The position numbers and the translations under genes were made by a program. Positions 1-34,199 of a DNA stretch of 59,116 nucleotides are shown here, piece by piece (position 1 is the first letter of the stretch; each line of letters starts with the position of its first letter). The notes below the pieces were generated by a model. It had not been told where the DNA came from. It worked only from the letters and a program-made list of their open reading frames with translations, and searched no databases. Where the stretch lies: assembly GCA_964443725.1 (NCBI GenBank), contig CAYUDP010000002.1, forward strand, positions 1-59,116. The letters run 5' to 3'. The stretch comes from an uncultured Candidatus Saccharibacteria bacterium. Lineage in GTDB: Bacteria; Patescibacteriota; Minisyncoccia; Phycocordibacterales; JAKFXT01.

Positions 1-444
1 GGTGGCGCCGAGGACATTGAGGCTTTCGCCCCGTTTCTCGAGCACGTACTCGAACAGGTTGCCGAGGAGCTGCATGGCCATGTCCTTGAAAGCCAGTGTC
101 GGCCCGTTCGAGAGTTCCAGTAGGTGTAAGTCGGGCTCGAGTGTCGTGAGTGGGGTGATGTCCTCGGCATCACGTCCCGGCCGGCAGTGGCGGTAGGTGT
201 GGGCGGTGTAGGTCCGGTCAGTCAGGTCCTTCAGGTCGCAGGCGGGAATGTCATCCACGAACTTCTCTATGATGCGCAAGGCGAGTTCGCGGTAGGGCAG
301 ATCCCGCCATTCGGCGAGTTCGGCCTTCGTGACTTGGGGGTAATGCTCGGGCAGGTAGAGTCCGCCATCGGGCGCCAATCCTCCGAGCAGGATGTCGCAG
401 AAGTTTCGCGGGGGAACTCCACCACGGGTGGATATGTATTTCAT
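1..444 (-). CDS. thrC: threonine synthase, N-terminal 148 codons (continues past window start)
   Basis: Hand translation of the reverse strand from ATG at 444 gives MKYISTRGGVPPRNFCDILLGGLAPDGGLYLPE...LELSNGPTLAFKDMAMQLLGNLF. This contains the ThrC N-terminal signature and the PLP-lysine motif GPTLAFKD. The frame is open to position 1. A hand count of the first 60 nt gives about 60% G+C. Confidence 0.85.
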   Translation of the reverse strand, partial: MKYISTRGGVPPRNFCDILLGGLAPDGGLYLPEHYPQVTKAELAEWRDLPYRELALRIIEKFVDDIPACDLKDLTDRTYTAHTYRHCRPGRDAEDITPLTTLEPDLHLLELSNGPTLAFKDMAMQLLGNLFEYVLEKRGESLNVLGAT

Positions 445-625
445 CGCAGTACCTTTTTTTGAAGACCGTGGCACGGGATGTGCCATGTAATCTGCGCTGA
501 AGACTACTATAAATGTAATGTACAAGCAATTATTATTGGCAGGTATTTTAACTGGGGAGTTGTCAATTTAAGAAATATTAATTTTTTGGTAGATATTTCA
601 CATCACACTGGCTATGTCGCAATCA

Positions 626-8784: not shown

Positions 8785-10539
8785 ATGCATGTAAAGGAGG
8801 AACAATTGAAGGATTTTATATTGGACTCTGGATTGGTAAACAGAGATGATTTGGTGTTGGCTGAAGAACAAGCAAAAAACCAAGGCCAATCTGTAGGTCT
8901 TGCTCTTGTGTCTATGGGTAAGATAACCGACGATGATCTCCGTCGTATGCACGCTTATCTATTGGGTATACCTTTTGTTAACTTGAAGGGACAAAAGGTA
9001 GATTTTGAAATATTGAATTTGATCCCTGAACCTATAGCTCGCAATCACAATATTGTTGCTTTTAAAAAGAATGAAGACTCTATGGAAGTTGCTATGCTAG
9101 ATGTTGAGGATCTTGGAGCTATTGATTTCGTAAAGAAAAAAGTTGGACTAAAGGTTTTGCCTAGATTGACCGATAACGATTCGATGAAGAGCGTCCTGCT
9201 TCAATATCAGAAGAGCCTTAAAGCTGAGTTTGGAGATATTATTCAGAAAGAGACCAATAGCCTAAAGACTTTAATGGAAGAACAAGGGGACGATGTTTCG
9301 GCTTCAGATTTGAAGAAATTGGCTGAAGATCTTCCTGTTGTGCGTATTGTCGATTCTCTATTGAAACATGCAATCATACAAAATGCTTCAGATATACATA
9401 TTGAGCCAATGGAGACACAGGTTTTGGTTAGATATAGGATTGATGGAATACTAAGGGATGCAATGGTGCTACCAAAGGAAGCCGGGTCATCAATAACTGC
9501 GCGTATAAAAGTCTTGTCTAATTTGAAACTTGATGAAAAGAGATTGCCACAGGATGGGCGTTTCAAAGTAGAGTCCGAGAGGGAAAAAGTTTCTTTTCGT
9601 GTATCTATCTTGCCTACATATTTTGGTGAAAAGACAGTCATGCGTTTGCTTAAAGAAAACGCAGGAGGGTTCAATCTAGAGGGGTTGGGATTTCATGGGG
9701 AAGGACTAGAGATGGTTCATGAGGCAACGAGACTTTCAAATGGACTTATTCTAACGACTGGGCCAACTGGATCAGGTAAAACAACAACTCTCTATACGGT
9801 CTTGGATATCTTGAATACTCCTGATGTGAATATTTCGACTATCGAAGATCCTATAGAATATCAAGTTCCAAGAATAAACCAGACACAAGTAAAGCCAGAG
9901 ATTGGTTTTTCTTTTGCATCAGGACTTAGGACTCTTGTTCGTCAGGATCCAGACATAATAATGGTAGGTGAAATACGCGACGAGGAAACCGCTGGGCTTG
10001 CAGTTAACGCCGCTTTGACTGGGCACTTAGTTCTTTCAACTCTACACACCAACTCTGCGGCTGGTGCTATACCACGTCTAGTCGATATGCAGGTAGAACC
10101 ATTTCTTCTTGTTTCTACGATTAGAGTTATTATTGCCCAGAGACTTATGAGAAGACTATGTTCTTCGAAAGAGGAATATAAGATGAATAAAGCTGAATTG
10201 GATAGGCTTGGTAAATATGTTGATTTAGATAGGATGCTTAAGTTTCTAAAGGAAGAAAAGGTAGTTGCTCCAAGTGCTAATTGGGAGAACATACCATTTT
10301 ATAGAGCAAAGCCAGGTAAAGATTGTGAAGATGGGTATGCAGGTCGTGTTTCTATTCATGAAGTCTTGAAAATGTCCCAAGTTATTAGAGATATGGTTAT
10401 AAAAGGGGCCACAGCCGATGATATTGAACTTCAGGCTAAGAAGGAAGGTATGATGACTATGCTTGAAGACGGGATATTCCAAGCTGTGAGAGGACTAACA
10501 ACGGTTGAAGAAGTTTTGCGTGTCGTAAATACAGAATAA
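8785..10539 (+). CDS. pilB: type IV pilus / type II secretion assembly ATPase (GspE/PilB family)
   Basis: Walker A GPTGSGKTTTLY, Asp box STIEDPIEY, Walker B IIMVGEIRD, His box TGHLVLSTLHTN, and an N-terminal T2SSE_N-like domain. Confidence 0.9.
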   Translation: MHVKEEQLKDFILDSGLVNRDDLVLAEEQAKNQGQSVGLALVSMGKITDDDLRRMHAYLLGIPFVNLKGQKVDFEILNLIPEPIARNHNIVAFKKNEDSMEVAMLDVEDLGAIDFVKKKVGLKVLPRLTDNDSMKSVLLQYQKSLKAEFGDIIQKETNSLKTLMEEQGDDVSASDLKKLAEDLPVVRIVDSLLKHAIIQNASDIHIEPMETQVLVRYRIDGILRDAMVLPKEAGSSITARIKVLSNLKLDEKRLPQDGRFKVESEREKVSFRVSILPTYFGEKTVMRLLKENAGGFNLEGLGFHGEGLEMVHEATRLSNGLILTTGPTGSGKTTTLYTVLDILNTPDVNISTIEDPIEYQVPRINQTQVKPEIGFSFASGLRTLVRQDPDIIMVGEIRDEETAGLAVNAALTGHLVLSTLHTNSAAGAIPRLVDMQVEPFLLVSTIRVIIAQRLMRRLCSSKEEYKMNKAELDRLGKYVDLDRMLKFLKEEKVVAPSANWENIPFYRAKPGKDCEDGYAGRVSIHEVLKMSQVIRDMVIKGATADDIELQAKKEGMMTMLEDGIFQAVRGLTTVEEVLRVVNTE

Positions 10540-10540
10540 T

Positions 10541-11758
10541 ATGCAGTTTAAGGTAAAAATCTTAAAAGAAGATGGAACTGATGAAGAAAAGATAATTGAG
10601 GCCCCAAACAAGGTAGCCCTTTATGATGTTATCAGGCAAGATGGTGGAAAATTGGTTTCAGCTAAAGAAGTGACGGGTAGTTTCTTGAATATAATTTACC
10701 ACAGGATAAATTCGATGCTTGGGCGAGTTGGGCAACAGGAAATTGTGATGTTTTCTAGAAATATATCTGCAATGCTAAAGGCTGGACTTTCTCTTTCTAG
10801 AGCCCTTTCTGTGATGGAGCACCAGACAAAAAATGAGAAATTTAAGAAAATACTTGGAGATGTAAATGAAGAGATAAAAAAAGGAGGTAATTTTTCAACG
10901 GGGCTTGCAAAATATCAAAGTATTTTTTCAGTACTTTTCGTATCTATGGTTAAAGCTGGAGAGGAGAGTGGTAATCTGGGGGATACCCTAGGTGTTATTG
11001 CAGATCAAATGGAGAAAACCTATCTTTTGAAAAAGAAAATAAAAGGGGCAATGATTTATCCGGCTGTTATTTTATCCGCCATGATAATAATAGGTGTTCT
11101 TATGATGATATATGTCGTTCCATCTCTTACAGGAACATTTAAAGAATTAAAAGTAGAGCTCCCTCCAACGACCAAAGTCATTATTGGTATATCTGATTTT
11201 CTCCAGAATCATACAATCCTCTTTTTGTTCATAGTTTTTGGTGTAATTTTTGGGATCGTTTCAGCTTCCAAGACAACTCCTGGGAAAAGGATGATAGATT
11301 ATATAACTCCTAGGTTTCCTGTACTTGGGGGTATTGTCCAAGAGGCCAATGCTGCACGTACGGCAAGAACTCTATCCTCACTTCTTTCTGCTGGCGTTGA
11401 AGTTGTTGGTGCTTTGTCTATTACAAAAGATGTATTACAAAATTCTTATTACAAGGAAGTTATAGACGAAGCGCAAGCCCAAATTCAGAAAGGGGCTCCG
11501 ATGTCTGCAGTTTTCATGGATCATGAAGAAATATACCCGATCTTGGTGGGGGAGATGATTAGTGTGGGGGAAGAAACAGGAGCTCTTTCAGATATGCTTT
11601 CTCGTTTGGCAATTTTTTATGAAACAGAGGTTGATCAAAAGACAAAAGATCTTTCCACAATAATAGAGCCGTTTCTTATGCTCTTCATTGGAGGGGCTGT
11701 AGGCTTTTTTGCAATCGCTATGATTTCGCCGACATATTCGATAATGAATAATATATAA
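10541..11758 (+). CDS. pilC: type IV pilus platform protein (GspF/PilC family)
   Basis: Two GspF repeats (FSRNISAMLKAGLSLSRAL; TARTLSSLLSAGVEVVGAL) with TM segments. It starts 1 nt after the pilB stop. Confidence 0.9.
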   Translation: MQFKVKILKEDGTDEEKIIEAPNKVALYDVIRQDGGKLVSAKEVTGSFLNIIYHRINSMLGRVGQQEIVMFSRNISAMLKAGLSLSRALSVMEHQTKNEKFKKILGDVNEEIKKGGNFSTGLAKYQSIFSVLFVSMVKAGEESGNLGDTLGVIADQMEKTYLLKKKIKGAMIYPAVILSAMIIIGVLMMIYVVPSLTGTFKELKVELPPTTKVIIGISDFLQNHTILFLFIVFGVIFGIVSASKTTPGKRMIDYITPRFPVLGGIVQEANAARTARTLSSLLSAGVEVVGALSITKDVLQNSYYKEVIDEAQAQIQKGAPMSAVFMDHEEIYPILVGEMISVGEETGALSDMLSRLAIFYETEVDQKTKDLSTIIEPFLMLFIGGAVGFFAIAMISPTYSIMNNI

Positions 11759-19808: not shown

Positions 19809-20486
19809 ATGGATAAAGAAAAAGACAAAGTTATTTATTGTGATGGTAGTTCTATTGGAAACCCTGGTCCTGGAGCATGGGGAGGGCTTGTTGTTTGTGA
19901 TGAAAAAGTATTTGAAATCGGAGGTAGTGATGAACATACAACTAACAATAAAATGGAGATAAGGGCTTCCATAGAGTCATTGAAAAAAATAGTGTCACTT
20001 GGTGCAAAAGAAGTGGATGTTTTCACCGATTCAGAATATTTGGTAAACGGTATAACAAAATGGGTTAATGGTTGGCAAAAAAATGGTTGGATAACATCGA
20101 CTAAAAGCGAAGTCTTAAATAGGGACCTCTGGGAAGAACTACTTTCTATTTCACAAGATATAAAAATAAATTGGAACCATATAAGAGGCCATCGAGGTCA
20201 TCTATATAATGAAAGAGTGGATGAAATAGCAAATGGTTTAGCAAGGGGGGAGAAGATAGAATTTTTTTCTGGTTTAAGAAAAAATTATTCACCCATACTT
20301 AGTGAAAAGAAACCAATCGGGGGAAAGGCTTTTGGTTATGTTAGTTTGGTAAACGGTGTAGTTATGTTTCATAAGAACTGGGCGTCGTGTAAGAATACGG
20401 TTAACGGTGCTGTGGGGGCAAAATTCCGAAAAGTAAAAGATATGGGTGATGCAGATCGTCTCATGAAAGAATGGTTGAACAATTAG
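19809..20486 (+). CDS. rnhA: ribonuclease HI fused to a C-terminal hybrid-binding (HBD/viroplasmin-like) domain
   Basis: Catalytic residues in CDGSSIGNPGPGAWG, TNNKMEIRA, TDSEY and HRGHLYNERVDEIA. The C-terminal FGYVSLVNGVVMFHKNWASCKNTVNGAVGAKFRKV resembles the RNase H1 HBD. Confidence 0.85.
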   Translation: MDKEKDKVIYCDGSSIGNPGPGAWGGLVVCDEKVFEIGGSDEHTTNNKMEIRASIESLKKIVSLGAKEVDVFTDSEYLVNGITKWVNGWQKNGWITSTKSEVLNRDLWEELLSISQDIKINWNHIRGHRGHLYNERVDEIANGLARGEKIEFFSGLRKNYSPILSEKKPIGGKAFGYVSLVNGVVMFHKNWASCKNTVNGAVGAKFRKVKDMGDADRLMKEWLNN

Positions 20487-21949
20487 AAAAAAAAGAAAAT
20501 CAGATAAAAGAAAGCGCGAGTGTGTTTTATAACCTCGCGCTTTCTTTTATTTTTGGAGTTTTCATCGGGACTTTCGTTGAAGTTGATGTCTATTTATTAC
20601 TAGCAGTTTGTCTTTCAATAGTTTGTTCATTCTTAGTATCTCTTTTTATTTTTAAAAGAAATAATATACATTTGTGTCTTTCTATCATTTTGTTTCTGTC
20701 TGGTATTTTACGAGTGAGTGGGTTTCATGAATTGCCTATTAGGGTTCCTCTTGATAAAAAAGTTTCTCTTCAAGCGCAAATTATTGATGAACCAGATTTT
20801 AGAGAAAACAGGACTCTTATAAAAATCAAAGTATTGGACGAAAAAAAATCTGATGTAATTTTAGTCACCCTCCCCCCTAATGAAAGATATCTGTATGGAG
20901 ATGTTGTTTCGGTGTTAGGTACAGTTAAACTGCCACAGGCTTTTGAAACTTACAAAGATCATTATTTCCCATACAGAGAATATCTCATGAAAGATGGTAT
21001 ATGTTGCGTTTCATATTATCCAAAAATAAATCTTGTAAGTAGAGGGGGTGGAAATATTGTGATGAAAAAACTGCTTGATCTAAAAGGGAGTTTCATCAAC
21101 TCTCTTGGTGTCTCTATTGTTGAGCCGGAGTCCACGCTCGCCTCAGGACTTCTTTTGGGGGCGAAGAATTCTTTGCCGAAAAGTGTTTCTGATGATTTAA
21201 GAAATGCTGGAATAATTCATATTGTCGTTTTGTCTGGGTATAACATAACAATCGTTGCTGATTCTCTGATGAAAGTCCTTGGCTTTTTGCCGAGAATTAT
21301 AAGTTTTTCCTTTGGAATAATATCAGTTTTGCTTTTTGCTCTGATGACAGGAGCCTCTGCGACTGTAGTTAGAGCAAGTATTATGTCTCTGGTATTGATA
21401 CTCGCGAGATTTTCTAATCGTGATTATCTAGCGATGAGAGCTCTTGTACTTGCAGGGTTTGTCATGGTGGTTCACAATCCATCTATTCTTGTATTCGATT
21501 TTTCTTTTCAATTATCTTTTCTGGCTTCGATTGGGCTCGTTCTCTTATCAGGCAGATTTTCGAGTCATTTAAAATTTGTGACAAATAGATTTTCTATAAG
21601 GGAGATAGTTTCTAGTACTCTATCAACACAGGTCTTTGTATTACCATTTCTTATTTATTCAACTGGCAAACTTTCGCTCTGGGGTTTTTTGTCCAATGTG
21701 TTGGTTTTGCCAATAATACCTCTTACGATGTTTTTAAGTTTGATCTCTGGTCTTGTGGGGTATGTCGGTGGGATCTTTTCATACATTATCGGAGGTGTAG
21801 CTTATTTGTTTTTAAAATATATTTTTGTTATTGCTAGTTTTTTTGGAAATTTGGATTTTGGAATTTTTGATATTACCAATATATCATTCAAAACTCTCGT
21901 TATATTTTATTTGATTTTGTTGTTTTTCATTTTCTTTAAAAGAAAATGA
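20471..21949 (+). CDS. comEC: ComEC/Rec2 DNA-uptake channel (membrane domains only)
   Basis: Polytopic 492-aa protein with an OB/DUF4131-like region and the competence domain (GIIHIVVLSGYNITIV, TGASATVVRASIMS). It has no MBL domain. Confidence 0.8.
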   Translation: MVEQLEKKENQIKESASVFYNLALSFIFGVFIGTFVEVDVYLLLAVCLSIVCSFLVSLFIFKRNNIHLCLSIILFLSGILRVSGFHELPIRVPLDKKVSLQAQIIDEPDFRENRTLIKIKVLDEKKSDVILVTLPPNERYLYGDVVSVLGTVKLPQAFETYKDHYFPYREYLMKDGICCVSYYPKINLVSRGGGNIVMKKLLDLKGSFINSLGVSIVEPESTLASGLLLGAKNSLPKSVSDDLRNAGIIHIVVLSGYNITIVADSLMKVLGFLPRIISFSFGIISVLLFALMTGASATVVRASIMSLVLILARFSNRDYLAMRALVLAGFVMVVHNPSILVFDFSFQLSFLASIGLVLLSGRFSSHLKFVTNRFSIREIVSSTLSTQVFVLPFLIYSTGKLSLWGFLSNVLVLPIIPLTMFLSLISGLVGYVGGIFSYIIGGVAYLFLKYIFVIASFFGNLDFGIFDITNISFKTLVIFYLILLFFIFFKRK

Positions 21950-22447: not shown

Positions 22448-23044
22448 TTATATTTTGTTGAACCTATCTTCTGTAACTTGCCAATTTATGTTGTTCAAGA
22501 ATGCATCGACGTATTTTATTTTTTCTGCTGGTATATAATCGGCCATGAAGGCGTGTTCCCACATATCAAGCGCGAGTATTATAGGCAGTCCGGCCAATTG
22601 TCCTAGCTCGTGATCAGACACCCAATATATGTGTGGGGTTTTCCCAATCGGATCGTATGCTAAAATTGTCCACCCGATGCCTCTGGAAAGACTAACTGCT
22701 TTGAAGTGTTTTATAAAACCTTCTATACTTTCGTATTTTTCAATCAATACTTTTGCCAAGTTGCTATCTTGATTTAATTCAATATTTCCGTTTTCGAATT
22801 GCTCAAAATAATATTCGTGCATTCTCATCCCGTTGAACTCAAAACCAAACCTTCTTAGTGTTTCTGTAATGGCGTAGCTATTTTTTTCACTATCTTTTCT
22901 TAGTTCCTCAAGTTGTTCTCGGAGTGTGTTGGTGAATTTCACATATCCTTCGTAGAGCTTGAGATGGAGATCTATTTGCTTTTGGGAAATACCCTTTAAT
23001 TCACCTATGGTGAATTGTTTTGCTGAATAAGTATGTTTGTACAT
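22448..23044 (-). CDS. sodA: Fe/Mn-family superoxide dismutase
   Basis: The C-terminal metal-binding motif DMWEHAFMADY and the overall SOD_Fe N- and C-domain layout. Confidence 0.9.
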   Translation of the reverse strand: MYKHTYSAKQFTIGELKGISQKQIDLHLKLYEGYVKFTNTLREQLEELRKDSEKNSYAITETLRRFGFEFNGMRMHEYYFEQFENGNIELNQDSNLAKVLIEKYESIEGFIKHFKAVSLSRGIGWTILAYDPIGKTPHIYWVSDHELGQLAGLPIILALDMWEHAFMADYIPAEKIKYVDAFLNNINWQVTEDRFNKI

Positions 23045-24075: not shown

Positions 24076-24996
24076 ATGCAAAAAACCACCATCTATCTCA
24101 AAGCAATCCTCCTTGCAATAGTTCTAGTACTAGGAAGTGCTTATGTATCAGCTTGGACGGCTCCAGTAAGTGATCCGCCAGGGGGGTTTGTTGATTTATC
24201 AGTTAATGTCTCTAATAATACTCAACTTAAAACTGGAACGTTTGGGGCTGGAAGTCTTATTTCAGCAACAAGTATCACTGTAGGAGGTCTAAAGAATTGC
24301 GCAGCCATATCAACTGATAAAGATGGTAATTTCTCTTGCACTACTGTAGCAAAGACTGCCACAACAAAAGAATGGACTACCCCAGGAACATATACATTCA
24401 CTGTGCCAGCTGGGGTGACTACTATAGATTTAGTGACTGTTGGCGGTGGTGGGTCGGGTGGTTCAGGTGAATCGGTGTCTGGTCCTGGAATAGGAGATCA
24501 TTATTCTGGAGGTGGTGGAGGCGGTGGAGACATAGAGACATATACACTCCCCGTTGCTCCTGGGGATGCTGTGACTGTAAAGGTTGGAGCATCTGGGCAG
24601 ATTTCAAATATTATATACAAATCAACTACTTATGCTCTAGCAAGGGGTGGATCTAATGGTACCAATGGTTCAGCTGGGTCACCAATGGTTTGTACTGAAA
24701 CAGACCCTACTTGGGGATTTTGTACAGGATGGAGCGGTGGAGTTCCGGCTACCAATGGGGTAGGTGGTGCCGGTGGTACCGGAACGAACCCAGGAAGTAA
24801 GGGTGGAAACGCTGGTACTGGTGGTCATGATATGTCTCCGCTTGCTGGAAAAGGTGGTGATATAAAACCCCCTGCAACCTTGACTGATTTGCCGGCAGGA
24901 TATGGTACTGGCGGAGATGGTGGTAGTGGTGTTGGTGGTGCTGGAATACATAGTGGAGCAAGTGGAAAAACTGGCTATGTAAGATTTTCTTATTAA
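24076..24996 (+). CDS. secreted protein with a glycine-rich domain
   Basis: Signal peptide ...LGSAYVSAW|TAP, then WTTPGTYTFTVPAGVTTIDLVTVGGGGSGG followed by long Gly-rich tracts. Confidence 0.65.
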   Translation: MQKTTIYLKAILLAIVLVLGSAYVSAWTAPVSDPPGGFVDLSVNVSNNTQLKTGTFGAGSLISATSITVGGLKNCAAISTDKDGNFSCTTVAKTATTKEWTTPGTYTFTVPAGVTTIDLVTVGGGGSGGSGESVSGPGIGDHYSGGGGGGGDIETYTLPVAPGDAVTVKVGASGQISNIIYKSTTYALARGGSNGTNGSAGSPMVCTETDPTWGFCTGWSGGVPATNGVGGAGGTGTNPGSKGGNAGTGGHDMSPLAGKGGDIKPPATLTDLPAGYGTGGDGGSGVGGAGIHSGASGKTGYVRFSY

Positions 24997-26754: not shown

Positions 26755-27231
26755 ATGAGAAGACCATTACCTGCAAAAAAGAGACATCCAGTTAAGCCTG
26801 ATTTGAAATATAAATCAGAGAGAGTTTCAAAGTTTATTAACTGCGTTATGCTGGATGGAAAGAAAAATACAGCAAGAAAGGTTGTTTATGATGCATTTGA
26901 GATAATAAAAGAAAAGTCAAAAGTTGAAAATCCAGTAGAAGTCTTTGAGACAGCTTTGCAAAACGTGTCTCCAAATATGGAAGTTAGATCTCGCCGTGTT
27001 GGTGGTGCTAACTACCAGGTGCCAAGAGAGGTTAGGCCAGAGAGAAAACAAGCTCTAGCTTTCAGGTGGCTTATAGATGCGGCTTTTTCTAAGAAAGGGC
27101 GTCCTATGGCTGAAAAATTGGCAGATGAACTTATTATGGCAGCAAAAAATGAAGGTGAGGCTGTAAAGAAGAGAGAAAACACCCACAAAATGGCTGAGGC
27201 TAACAAAGCTTTTGCTCACTTTGCTTGGTAA
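26755..27231 (+). CDS. rpsG: 30S ribosomal protein S7
   Basis: S7 sequence ([16 protein letters not shown]) directly after rpsL. Confidence 0.95.
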
Positions 27232-27241
27232 AATAATATTT

Positions 27242-27282
27242 AAAAGCAAAAACCTCCAGACATCTGGAGGTTTTTGCTTTTA
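27242..27282 (+). terminator. strong hairpin after rpsG
   Basis: The 19-nt arm AAAAGCAAAAACCTCCAGA pairs with TCTGGAGGTTTTTGCTTTT across a 3-nt loop. Confidence 0.7.
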
Positions 27283-27330
27283 AATGGAGGTACCCCTTTT
27301 TTAGGAAGGGGTAGGTTTCAAGGAGAGGTG

Positions 27331-31453: not shown

Positions 31454-31807
31454 ATGGAAAAAACTGCAAAAAAGAGCAATAAGAAGCTATCGGAAGGCGA
31501 TTCATCAAAGCTTCGCTTGAGAGTGCAGGCTTATGAGCACAAAATCTTGGATTCGTCGGTTAAGCAGATTATAGACACAGCTTTGCGTTTCGATGCAAAA
31601 GTAGAAGGTCCTATTCCGCTTCCAACAAACAACAAGAAATACACCGTCAACCGTGCGTCGTTTATCTTCAAAAATGCGCGAGAACAGTTTGAGATGCGCG
31701 TGCATAGGAGATTGGTAGATATAATCAATCCCTCAGGTAAGATAGTGGAAGCTCTAACAAATATTTCTCTACCATCTGGAGTCTCTATAGATGTAAAGAT
31801 GATGTAA
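31454..31807 (+). CDS. rpsJ: 30S ribosomal protein S10 (with short N-terminal extension)
   Basis: LRLRVQAYEHKILD...GPIPLPT is the S10 core. Confidence 0.95.
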   Translation: MEKTAKKSNKKLSEGDSSKLRLRVQAYEHKILDSSVKQIIDTALRFDAKVEGPIPLPTNNKKYTVNRASFIFKNAREQFEMRVHRRLVDIINPSGKIVEALTNISLPSGVSIDVKMM

Positions 31808-31811
31808 GAAA

Positions 31812-31841
31812 TTCAAAAGCCCCCTTAAGGGGGCTTTTGAA
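31812..31841 (+). terminator. hairpin directly after rpsJ
   Basis: TTCAAAAGCCCCC pairs with GGGGGCTTTTGAA across a TTAA loop, followed by TTT. Confidence 0.65.
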
Positions 31842-31949
31842 TTTATGCATGGGGCATATTGATTTGTTAATTTTATTCATGTACTCTTCCTGCGGAATAT
31901 AACCCGGGCGGGTTATACCAGTAAACTTGAAAGAAAGGAAGCACAACAA

Positions 31950-32678
31950 ATGCGTACAAAACTGAGTCTTGCGGCTGACGGGATGTCTCTCGAGAAGCTC
32001 TTCGGGATCCTCAAGGGGGAAGTCGCGCAGGTAATTGACCGTGTGAAGGTCCATGATCTTCTCGATTCCATGGGGCCGTTGCTCCTGAGGTTTCTGGCGA
32101 TCTGTGGTTTCGAACCGTGGGTGGACTACAAGCTCCACGATACCACGGACACCGTCCGCTTGCGCGTCGCCGCACTCGTGCGGAATGGCGCCCGGATCAT
32201 CACGGTGCACGCTTCGGGTGGTGTGGAGATGATGCAGGAAGCTATCAAAGGTACGATGAGTACCTGCGATGAGCGGATGGCAAAGATCTATGCCATTACG
32301 GCGCTCACGTCGCTAAGCGACGAAATGATTCAAAGGATTTACAATCGTTCCAGATTGGAGCAGGTTGAAGTCCTTGCGCGCATGGCTCTCGAGGCTGGTG
32401 TCGATGGTATTGTTTGTTCGGCGCTCGAGCTTGAGCACCTCAGGTCTCTTCCTGAATTTGCTCATGTACATCTCGTCGTTCCCGGCACTCGGTCGTTGGA
32501 TGCTGACCTTGGTCAGCAGAAACGTACCGACACGCCAAGGAACGCAGTTGCTCATGGTGCCAACGAACTCGTTGTCGGAAGCCAGGTGACCAAGGCAGAA
32601 GATCGAAAGATCGCGATGGCCAAATTCCTGGCCGAAGTGGTCGATGGGGAAAGCCAAGCAGGCATCTCTTCGCAGTAA
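31950..32678 (+). CDS. pyrF: orotidine 5-phosphate decarboxylase (GC-rich)
   Basis: OMPdecase motifs LAAD, VKVH, DYKLHD (D-x-K-x-x-D), VHASGG, VVPGTRS and ANELVVGSQV. SD AAGGAAG. Adjacent to pyrE. Confidence 0.75.
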   Translation: MRTKLSLAADGMSLEKLFGILKGEVAQVIDRVKVHDLLDSMGPLLLRFLAICGFEPWVDYKLHDTTDTVRLRVAALVRNGARIITVHASGGVEMMQEAIKGTMSTCDERMAKIYAITALTSLSDEMIQRIYNRSRLEQVEVLARMALEAGVDGIVCSALELEHLRSLPEFAHVHLVVPGTRSLDADLGQQKRTDTPRNAVAHGANELVVGSQVTKAEDRKIAMAKFLAEVVDGESQAGISSQ

Positions 32679-32708
32679 GCAACATCAACCACAAAGAAGG
32701 AGAAGCAG

Positions 32709-33383
32709 ATGAGTCAAGAAAGGAAGGGAAACCTCCCCGAGGAGTTCCTGAAGTTTGCAATCGCAACAGGAGTACTCCTCTTCGGCGAGTTCACGACCAA
32801 GGCGGGGCGCCTGTCGCCCTATTTCTTCAATGCAGGTCTGTTCAACGACGGGGCATCCCTGGGCCGGCTCTGTGGTTTCTATGCCGAAACGGTCCTGGCT
32901 TCGGGGCTCGAATTTGACGCCCTCTTCGGACCGGCCTACAAGGGCATCCCGCTCGCGTCCGGCACTGCGATGGCATTGGCATTGCGTGGGCGGAATCTGC
33001 CCTACTGCTACAACCGCAAGGAGGCGAAGGACCATGGAGAAGGTGGAACCACAATCGGGGCCCCACTCGTCGGCAAGGTCCTCATCGTCGACGATGTCAT
33101 CAGTGCCGGGACCTCGGTGCGTGAGTCAGTGGAACTGATCCGCGCGGCCGGCGCAACTCCGGCTGGGGTGTTGATCGCGCTCGACCGTCAAGAACGTGGC
33201 CAGGGAAGGTTGTCCGCCGTCCAGGAGGTGCAACAAAACTACGGGATACCCGTGCTCAGTGTTGCAACGCTCACGGACCTGATCGGCTTCCTGGTCAAGG
33301 ACCCAGAGATGGATCGGAACCTCGTCGTCGTCGAGAAGTATCGGGCTCAGTACGGCATCTTCGAGGAAGATCAATCGGCCTGA
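32709..33383 (+). CDS. pyrE: orotate phosphoribosyltransferase (GC-rich)
   Basis: [28 protein letters not shown], the PRPP loop [13 protein letters not shown] and LDRQERG. A hand count of the first 110 nt gives about 57% G+C. Confidence 0.9.
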
Positions 33384-33438
33384 AAAAAGCCATTCGGCCC
33401 GGCTCCACTAATTAGTGGACTTGAAGTAAGCTGACATG

Positions 33439-33485
33439 GACCAGCCTAAGCCTCCCAATCGGGTGGGTAAGGGCTGGTCTTTTTA
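33439..33485 (+). terminator. hairpin plus T-run after pyrE
   Basis: GACCAGCC (33439-33446) pairs with GGCTGGTC (33472-33479), followed by TTTTTATTT. Confidence 0.6.
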
Positions 33486-33500
33486 TTTGGGTGTATTTAT

Positions 33501-33528
33501 TTGCATTTTTATAAATATCGTGTAATAT
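33501..33528 (+). promoter_or_regulatory. sigma70-like promoter TTGCAT-16-TAATAT for rplC
   Basis: TTGCAT at 33501-33506, 16-nt spacer, TAATAT at 33523-33528, about 70 nt upstream of the rplC ATG. Confidence 0.45.
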
Positions 33529-33596
33529 CATCGGACAAACCTAATAACTGGCTTTATGCCTATGAAGCGCTCTTTTTGAGCCCTTCCACTAGGAAT

Positions 33597-34199
33597 ATGA
33601 AATTTATACTTGGAAAAAAGCAAAATATGACTCAGGTTTTTGATGACAAAGGCCGAGTAAGGGCTGGAACAGTTGTTTCAGTGACTCCTATGGTTGTGAC
33701 GCAAGTCAAAACTAATGAAAAAGATGGGTATTCTGCCCTACAGTTTGGAGCATTCCCAAAGAGAAAGATTCAAAATAAGGCTTTAATGGGCCATTTGAAG
33801 GACATGGGTAATTTTTCTTTGCTTAAAGAATATAGTCTTCTTGATTCAACTTTAAATGTCGGAGATTCAGTTTCTGTTGACGTTTTTTCAGTTGGGGATA
33901 AAGTTGAAATTTCTGGACTTTCAAAATCAAAGGGATTCCAAGGCGTTATAAAGCGACATGGATTCCACGGAGGTCCTAGAACACATGGTCAGAAGCACTC
34001 AGAAAAGGAACCAGGTTCAATTTCTGGAGGACTGCGCACTAGAGTTCCAAAGGGTATGCGTATGGCAGGTAGAATGGGTGGAGATAGGATAACTGTTAAG
34101 AATCTCTCTGTTCTTGCTGTTTTACCCGAAAAGAATGAAATAATAATAAAAGGAGCCGTTCCTGGTCGACGCGGATCAATACTCGAAATAAAAGGATAA
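33597..34199 (+). CDS. rplC: 50S ribosomal protein L3
   Basis: MKFILGKKQNMTQVFDDKGRV... is a typical L3 N-terminus, with KGFQGVIKRHGF further in. I prefer the ATG at 33597 over the TTG at 33501. Confidence 0.93.
   Translation: MKFILGKKQNMTQVFDDKGRVRAGTVVSVTPMVVTQVKTNEKDGYSALQFGAFPKRKIQNKALMGHLKDMGNFSLLKEYSLLDSTLNVGDSVSVDVFSVGDKVEISGLSKSKGFQGVIKRHGFHGGPRTHGQKHSEKEPGSISGGLRTRVPKGMRMAGRMGGDRITVKNLSVLAVLPEKNEIIIKGAVPGRRGSILEIKG

Follow-up and report, generated by a model that had tools for sequence, protein, structure and literature searches.

Locus and gene content

The present analysis deals with two pyrimidine genes, pyrF and pyrE, that lie between the ribosomal protein genes rpsJ and rplC on contig CAYUDP010000002.1 of the Patescibacteria, or Candidate Phyla Radiation (CPR). 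The whole stretch of 59,116 nt is called the window and its source the window strain, while L-numbers designate comparison contigs. Between rpsJ (31454-31807) and rplC (from 33597) 1789 nt are found, which are filled by two co-oriented open reading frames (ORFs), 31950-32678 with 242 and 32709-33383 with 224 amino acids. They are separated by a 30-nt spacer, and an AAGGAG-like ribosome-binding site is situated 5' of each gene. The start of rplC at 33597 is backed by relatives whose proteins align from residue 1. The features of the locus are as follows.

31908..33462, + strand: islet of 1555 nt, absent from the empty-site strain, where 89 AT-rich nt are found
31950..32678, + strand: pyrF, OMP decarboxylase of a Patescibacteria-specific clade (PF00215, 1.5e-30; TIGR01740)
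32709..33383, + strand: pyrE, orotate phosphoribosyltransferase of Rhodocyclaceae type (TIGR00336, 191.5 bits vs. 106.8)
31845..31907, + strand: native intergenic DNA common to the empty-site strain, with clear homology stopping at 31907
31454..31807, + strand: rpsJ, ribosomal protein S10, left neighbour (Pfam Ribosomal_S10, 5.9e-30); the same protein occurs on 22 contigs with the islet present or absent
33597..34199, + strand: rplC, ribosomal protein L3, right neighbour (Pfam Ribosomal_L3)

An earlier note on this DNA had placed pyrF and pyrE between rpsJ and rplC and had regarded them as foreign and GC-rich. The coordinates and the gap of 1789 nt were correct, both protein identities are supported by curated models above their cut-offs (TIGR01740 and TIGR00336), and the deviating composition was verified as well. 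The G+C content amounts to 0.553 in pyrF and 0.601 in pyrE, with values at third codon positions (GC3) of 0.62 and 0.72, respectively, whereas the neighbouring rplC, rplD and rplB show GC3 values of only 0.26-0.30 and the window has a mean G+C content of 0.391. The elevated G+C content extends from approximately 31950 to 33500, and stacks of shadow ORFs are concentrated at the islet and at the left end of the window, as had been stated before.

Independent assemblies of the arrangement

The abrupt shift in GC content and the many short contigs that stop at the islet borders could point to an assembly chimera of CPR and proteobacterial reads, a doubt already raised in the earlier note. However, four independent assemblies (ERZ27283041, ERZ27283032, ERZ27282891 and ERZ17987696) yielded the identical arrangement, with the exact PyrE protein on four contigs, and the 1974-nt contig L002, which is 100% identical to window positions 31747-33720, crosses both junctions. 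Moreover, a sister strain of about 96% identity, represented by contig L005, shows the matching gene order tuf-rpsJ-pyrF-pyrE-rplC in ERZ28655916, SRR31616034, DRR274959 and SRR6747781, which were obtained with other assemblers. Because at least eight independent assemblies share the arrangement, a chimera was rejected. In addition, both junctions were recovered at 100% identity in separate samples with different assemblers, pyrF lacks relatives in Proteobacteria, a perfect palindrome is located where the contigs break, and the longest exact match between the sister pyrE and a sampled Rhodocyclaceae pyrE is 53 nt, which is too short for k=141 graphs. The chimera explanation is therefore regarded as extremely improbable.

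Short contigs from various samples start or stop at the islet borders (window positions 31815-31881 and 33548-33720), and several of them break inside a 36-nt palindrome (L004, L006, L007, L008, L115 and L116). These breaks fit palindrome-induced graph breaks, strain heterogeneity or both.

Presence and absence of the islet

The S10 protein of the window led to four contigs of a different sample series with an empty site (L107, L111, L112 and L114), which encode the same S10 and have flanks that are 97.2-98.2% identical to the window. Their rpsJ-rplC spacer comprises 328 nt with a GC content of 0.354. Their BLAST alignments with the window extend up to 31907 and start again at 33463, and the sequence 31908-33462 is replaced by 89 nt of 31.5% G+C that have no counterpart in the occupied allele. 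As the empty-site strain belongs to the same population, the islet represents a strain-variable insertion, which agrees with the earlier claim of an insertion. A third allele was detected on contig L110 (4603-4803; JGI 3300045354). It matches the empty site up to TTTGCATTTTTATAAAT and then continues into other DNA, which encodes a small hydrophobic ORF (VKRFFFGLAGVALITLAIAMIIIG...) just 5' of rplC, before the contig ends. Collectively, our data show a recombining population in which presence and absence of the islet segregate.

Regarding its age, dS of pyrF between window and sister strain is 0.098, within the range of the flanking genes (0.06-0.17), hence, the islet is at least as old as the split of these two strains. 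Such an age would also be expected if the islet had been present here ancestrally and was lost by deletion in the empty-site strains. The flanks point in the same direction, because the empty-site contig L107 groups with L005 and not outside both occupied strains: 101 informative sites on the left link the empty-site strain with the sister strain, compared to 33 and 23 for the alternatives, and 36 on the right, compared to 19 and 18. However, a simple deletion would not yield 89 nt of host-like AT-rich DNA without counterpart in the occupied allele. Furthermore, about 45 more distant relatives have neither pyrF nor pyrE near rplC, the GC3 values are far off those of the host, and the pyrF-pyrE pair is found at other loci in other CPR members. 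An ancestral islet is thus considered improbable, and a gain of the islet at this site is preferred.

The boundary between rpsJ and rplC

The borders of the islet are accompanied by several structural elements, which are listed below.

31809..31844, either strand: perfect 36-nt palindrome (18+18), terminator-like on both strands (dG -25.7 kcal/mol, z -5.9; equalled by none of 200 shuffled sequences)
33438..33489, + strand: hairpin (33438-33480) with T-run, terminator-like, 3' of pyrE (dG -29, z -3.25)
31898..31917, no strand: 9-bp inverted repeat TATAACCCG/CGGGTTATA across the left junction (z -2.1, weak, not clearly beyond chance)
33404..33419, no strand: 16-bp palindrome TCCACTAATTAGTGGA (z -1.8 as a fold, not clearly beyond chance), right recombination junction in the sister strain
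33501..33528, + strand: promoter-like TTGCAT-16-TAATAT before rplC (7 of 12 consensus positions; no call by the promoter scan)

It had been proposed that these structures bracket the insert, that rplC received a new promoter, and that the insertion split the S10 operon. All of the elements exist, however, the inverted repeat at 31898-31917 and the palindrome at 33404-33419 are not clearly beyond chance. The palindrome after rpsJ is identical in the empty-site strain L107, and TTGCAT-16-TAATAT, the supposed new promoter, is also present in the empty-site contigs L107 and L114. Therefore, neither the rpsJ terminator nor the promoter-like element before rplC was brought by the insert. The 3' half of the hairpin behind pyrE is homologous to a weaker hairpin of the L107 empty site (-15.4 kcal/mol), and only the left arm of the inverted repeat at 31898-31917 has a counterpart there, which is diverged. 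Two candidates for insertion scars were rejected, since both are native and likewise found in the empty site: a 13-nt repeat (31840-31852 and 33601-33613) considered as target-site duplication, and an inverted pair at 31743-31761 and 33573-33591.

Compared with the S10 operon (rpsJ-rplC-rplD-rplW-rplB-...), the gene order after rplC is canonical here and tuf is located 5' of rpsJ, whereas this lineage has a strong terminator and the 328-nt spacer after rpsJ even without the islet. As regards a single S10 transcription unit, a terminator-like palindrome follows rpsJ in the occupied and the empty alleles, and similar hairpins occur behind rpsJ in relatives. Given this native terminator/promoter-like spacer, the S10 operon would already have been interrupted before the insertion.

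The L3 proteins of the closest GTDB species representatives are only about 60% identical to that of the window, and all of these representatives are Paceibacteria-like Patescibacteria. Among about 45 such loci, none has pyrF or pyrE near rplC, and in about 12 the rpsJ-rplC gap measures 340-1400 nt and is filled with unrelated ORFs on either strand. Moreover, several relatives with spacers of 100-180 nt have a strong terminator-like hairpin directly after rpsJ. The rpsJ-rplC junction is consequently a permissive site in this clade, and the near-universal adjacency of both genes, on which the earlier note had relied, does not hold for all of these relatives. The claim of a split operon loses force, because this boundary already appears to be a terminator/promoter-like spacer that varies across the clade.

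The enlarged spacers were observed in L024, L026, L029, L033, L044, L048, L050, L051, L067, L091, L043 and L053. Their cargo includes hypothetical proteins, an HTH/sigma-like protein and a sugar-transferase-like protein, and two of the inserts are AT-richer than their hosts. A scan of metagenomes with a pattern from the PyrF alignment returned mainly ordinary PyrF proteins; only L117 and L122 were informative. On L122 (4980-6732), a CPR contig with a GC content of 0.50, the space between fusA and tuf, about 2.4 kb 5' of rpsJ-rplC, is occupied by a CPR-type pyrF that has no adjoining pyrE, by a gene for a YafQ-like toxin and by one hypothetical gene.

PyrF belongs to a Patescibacteria-specific clade

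PyrF of the window scores 97.0 with TIGR01740, narrowly above the cut-off of 92.3, and 107.2 with PF00215 (cut-off 27), and it is matched by OMP decarboxylases from the PDB, the best of them at 9.5e-27. The residues D10, K33 and D59-x-K61-x-x-D64 are invariant or nearly so in 118 members of its clade and align with the solved structures, and the motifs PGTR and QQKR..TP are kept as well. Thus, the protein shares with bacterial OMP decarboxylases (TIGR01740, PF00215; 2YYT, 1DBT, 1EIX) the Asp-x-Lys-x-x-Asp motif, the upstream Lys and Asp, PGxR and Q..R..TP, but its clade differs by an invariant K-x-H, W57, and G-S-Q in place of G-R. In the residue numbers of the window PyrF, G-S-Q corresponds to 210-212 (window 32578-32586), and K33-x-H35 and W57 are the invariant positions of the clade.

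The relatives of this PyrF come from Patescibacteria, with 95% identity in the sister strain, 81% in L009/L010, 72% in L015, 62% in L013 and around 50% in many others. At the nucleotide level, the nearest sampled CPR pyrF beyond the sister strain is 78% identical. The ratio dN/dS of pyrF is 0.26 to the sister strain and approximately 0.11 to deeper relatives, values which indicate that the gene is under purifying selection. PyrF is predicted to decarboxylate OMP to UMP, and its conserved pairing with pyrE in five CPR contexts gives indirect support to this assignment.

Rhodocyclaceae origin and second replacement of pyrE

Residues 11-217 of PyrE align with residues 6-213 of 1LH0 and 1ORO (E about 1e-80). 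The PRPP-binding motif is intact, and the flexible catalytic loop (K-D-H-G-E-G-G) is identical to that of the Salmonella and E. coli enzymes. Hence, PyrE is collinear with proteobacterial type I enzymes (Salmonella 1LH0/1OPR, E. coli 1ORO, Rhodocyclaceae) and has the same loop as well as the PRPP and FGPAYKGIP motifs. It shares GRL with the Rhodocyclaceae proteins, whereas the enteric enzymes have GRK. Unlike its proteobacterial counterparts, the window gene resides in a Patescibacteria genome of 39% G+C at the 3' side of a CPR-type pyrF, its first approximately 20 codons are unrelated, and its 3' part varies between strains through recombination.

The best matches of the window PyrE outside the CPR are proteins from Rhodocyclaceae and other Rhodocyclales with 73-78% identity, while the sister allele reaches 86.6%. 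Neighbour-joining trees unite the PyrE proteins of window strain and L005 (97%) within the Rhodocyclaceae. The CPR clade of L010 type forms a group of its own (100%) that falls outside the sampled Rhodocyclales (88%), and monophyly of all CPR PyrE proteins is found in 4%. Two Rhodocyclaceae pyrE genes occupy a conserved proteobacterial gene context of 67% G+C and have no adjacent pyrF. GC3 of pyrE declines with the apparent age of the gene, from 0.80-0.83 (donors) through 0.77 (sister strain) and 0.72 (window) to 0.63-0.64 (L010/L015). An origin of pyrE from Rhodocyclaceae (Betaproteobacteria) is demonstrable on the basis of these sequences, and the gene was gained before window and sister strain diverged.

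The comparison between both strains divides pyrE into two segments.

32709..32846, + strand: 5' pyrE segment common to the sister strain (window strain vs. L005 0.97 nucleotide identity, dS 0.03 for codons 1-45)
32847..33403, + strand: recombination-variable 3' pyrE and 20 nt downstream (window strain vs. L005 0.79, dS 0.66 for codons 56-215)

The nucleotide identity between window and sister strain is 0.95-1.0 everywhere but at 32801-33400. An accelerated evolution of pyrE in situ in the window strain was rejected, because dS jumps from 0.03 to 0.66 within the gene. The L005 gene is 0.90 identical to a Rhodocyclaceae pyrE (L100) over codons 56-215 and 0.95 over codons 161-215 (dS 0.13), and at about 32846-32873 the informative sites change from the state window equals sister to the state sister equals Rhodocyclaceae. 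Three short patches return to the former state within the 3' part, which indicates that a resident allele resembling that of the window was converted in patches. At the 3' end, the pyrE genes of L005-L008 share 47-48 identical nt with the Rhodocyclaceae gene up to ...CAATACGGC, followed by the palindrome TCCACTAATTAGTGG, and this CPR palindrome supplies the stop codon of the sister-strain gene. The window allele has a longer and different 3' end and meets the same palindrome after CGGC. In a tree from columns 45 to the end, monophyly of window and sister strain drops to 6%; the sister allele is then placed with the Rhodocyclaceae P0005/6/7 (52%). The 3' two-thirds of the sister-strain pyrE have evidently been overwritten again, very recently, by DNA from a close relative of the sampled Rhodocyclaceae.

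pyrF-pyrE pairs at other loci of Patescibacteria

The pair pyrF-pyrE was also found between secG and groES(-groEL) in L009/L010, L013/L014 and L015, and adjoining rpmG in the 652-kb contig L103. These pairs (L009/L010 labelled 'Ca. Kaiserbacteria', L013 labelled 'Ca. Pacebacteria', L015 and L103) show the same gene order, a short spacer and a pyrF of the same clade (50-81%), however, they are located at other loci than in the window. Such pairs are widespread in Patescibacteria. PyrE of L013 and L103 is of native CPR type, with 59% identity to each other and about 50% to Rhodocyclaceae, whereas L010 and L015 have Rhodocyclales-like proteins (62-67%) with 42-48% identity to L013/L103, although they share the locus with L013. 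L010 and L015 carry an apparently older Rhodocyclales-like PyrE, while PyrE of the window and sister strain is still closer to Rhodocyclaceae. The relationships of PyrF and PyrE among the CPR carriers are incongruent.

At this shared locus, the PyrE types of L013 (5448-6140) and L010 (6755-7618) differ, while PyrF of L010/L015 is 65-69% identical to that of L013; this looks like an in-situ replacement of pyrE at secG|..|groES. In every low-GC carrier (L010, L013 and L015) the pair is 7-10 percentage points richer in GC than the host, whereas in L103 it is near the host composition (0.56-0.57 vs. 0.54). The GC excess persists despite a protein divergence of 20-40% between carriers.

The adjacent position of two GC-rich genes with a 30-nt spacer and the hairpins at their flanks might suggest that pyrF and pyrE arrived together as one block, by one transfer from a single high-GC donor outside the CPR, along with their own terminators and a new rplC promoter. 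However, the relatives of PyrF are Patescibacteria and those of PyrE are Rhodocyclaceae, the Rhodocyclaceae pyrE loci have no adjacent pyrF, and the rpsJ terminator as well as the promoter-like element already exist in the empty site. Such a single-event transfer is very unlikely. The horizontal origin proposed in the earlier note can be upheld for pyrE, but not in the form of one cassette from one donor, because pyrF is of Patescibacteria type.

Proposed acquisition by DNA uptake and possible role of the islet

Taken together, these results make it probable that the locus represents a strain-variable 1.55-kb accessory islet for orotate-to-UMP salvage in a Paceibacteria-like population, which was acquired by DNA uptake and recombination. 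The host has a reduced Patescibacteria (CPR) genome with pilus genes and ComEC, both found in the window, in line with the reduced, DNA-scavenging host assumed before.

20471..21949, + strand: ComEC-like DNA-uptake channel (Pfam DUF4131 and Competence on the identical gene in L096)
8785..11758, + strand: pilB and pilC, type IV pilus ATPase and platform (Pfam T2SSE, T2SSF)

Natural transformation via ComEC and the type IV pilus may have been the route of acquisition, followed by homologous or homology-facilitated illegitimate recombination after uptake, and a resident Rhodocyclales-like pyrE would then provide the homology for later conversions. The sister strain has its left crossover within a conserved part of pyrE, and on the right the sequences meet at CGGC by the palindrome; this combination of a crossover in conserved pyrE with a microhomology junction fits natural transformation with either type of recombination. 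Neither integrase nor transposase was found in the islet, which holds only two ORFs, both metabolic, and the short repeats found are also present in the empty site or remain at chance level. The window contains neither tRNA genes nor matches to Rfam families. Among the features of classical mobile islands, deviant composition and presence/absence in close strains were observed, but not integrase, repeats or tRNA. Carriage by a phage was rejected, since a comparison of this PyrF with the viral contig collection revealed no relative.

PyrE would convert orotate and PRPP to OMP and PyrF OMP to UMP, i.e. the last two steps of UMP synthesis. No further pyrimidine-synthesis gene was detected in the 59-kb window and 10 kb to the left, in agreement with the previously suggested module for the last two steps. 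Most likely, the islet enables an organism that lacks de novo synthesis of pyrimidines to exploit external orotate, which might be derived from a host, while pyrF-pyrE could be transcribed from an own start or by read-through.

Several observations weigh against this view. The absence of other pyrimidine genes, namely pyrB/C/D, prs, pyrH and an orotate transporter, could be assessed only in the approximately 70 kb of the genome mentioned above. The promoter scan gave no convincing promoter in 31845-31949, and a strong terminator lies 5' of pyrF. PyrF scores below the equivalog cut-off of NF001273 (146 vs. 193) and barely passes TIGR01740. It has Ser211 at the position of the canonical G-R ('VVGR') arginine, aligned to Arg of 2YYT and 27HH, and we take this C-terminal arginine to bind phosphate, as R235 in yeast and R203 in M. 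thermautotrophicus. The PyrE trees are distance-based, calculated by neighbour-joining with bootstrap from 215 columns, the exact sister group of the window and L005 proteins is supported at only 54%, and the best match to the window's own 3' pyrE allele among the sampled genes is 78%. Finally, in its flanks the empty-site strain resembles the sister strain more closely than the window strain, hence, the history of gain and loss is blurred by recombination.

Part of these findings would also be compatible with a neutral or decaying passenger that has no metabolic role. The islet is dispensable, since empty-site strains exist, PyrF has serine for the canonical arginine and marginal model scores, its dN/dS of 0.26 is approximately ten-fold above that of neighbouring housekeeping genes, and a promoter was not detected by the scan. 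However, position 211 is Ser in 97 and Arg in 14 of the 118 clade members and Gln212 is present in 117 of them, so that Ser211 is a trait of the clade and no lesion of this copy. Moreover, at least eight assemblies and two alleles carry intact ORFs, dN/dS is well below 1 at all depths, the remaining catalytic residues are conserved, AAGGAG-like ribosome-binding sites precede both genes, and the repeated replacement of pyrE by intact alleles preserves the reading frame. We therefore give little credence to a mere passenger and favour the functional salvage islet.

It is tempting to speculate, though doubtful at present, that the repeated overwriting of pyrE by nearly identical DNA of Rhodocyclaceae records a physical association of this Paceibacteria-like lineage, as an epibiont, with Rhodocyclaceae as host, in which the islet would let the epibiont live on orotate leaked from the host. 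If true, the host of this organism could be read from its pyrE allele, which would act as a tag at the sequence level.

Regarding previous work, horizontal gene transfer into Patescibacteria has been reported to include genes of nucleotide metabolism such as thyA (PMC12455944), and de novo nucleotide synthesis is reported to be absent from 93% of Patescibacteria genomes, with such genes scattered in the phylum (bioRxiv 10.64898/2026.06.21.733656). As in the reported transfers (PMC12455944), a streamlined epibiont-type genome gains a function in nucleotide metabolism here. A limited literature search found no report on pyrE/pyrF transfer, a Rhodocyclaceae donor or an islet between rpsJ and rplC. 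The locus is thus a well-resolved new instance of a known process and no new kind of system.

Patescibacteria are believed to obtain their nucleotides from other cells, and their hosts are mostly unknown. In this regard, a small orotate-to-UMP module seems to circulate in the group as an accessory, strain-variable function, and gene flow from one neighbouring clade, the Rhodocyclaceae, has been caught nearly in the act with base-resolved breakpoints. Moreover, boundaries within the ribosomal protein gene cluster are tolerated as insertion sites in this clade. The donor signal yields a testable hypothesis on host or neighbour, and the module suggests the feeding of orotate for cultivation.

Other features of the window

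Besides ComEC and the pilus genes, the window encodes trigger factor, NusA, TIM, PGK, RecJ, the str-S10-spc run of ribosomal genes, SecY, glycoside hydrolases, QueA and NDK. A gene for an Fe/Mn superoxide dismutase is located at 22448-23044 on the minus strand. The increased GC content at 24.5-25 kb belongs to a protein with a glycine-rich domain (24076-24996; PF21722) and does not represent a foreign island. Within the str gene run, a long near-perfect hairpin was found at 27237-27285, just 3' of rpsG and 5' of fusA (dG -32.6 kcal/mol for 27231-27295), as another strong terminator-like element.

A second GC-rich island exists at the left end of the window (1-486 on the minus and 790-1272 on the plus strand; full gene on L104, 8225-9697). 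It encodes a threonine synthase of 490 amino acids (GC 0.62, GC3 0.80) and a hypothetical membrane protein of 160 amino acids (GC 0.57), sits between clpP and tig, which have GC3 values of 0.36-0.39, and was found in three independent assemblies. The best matches of this thrC island show 64-80% identity; the sole checked cluster with organism names was Corynebacterium at 55%.

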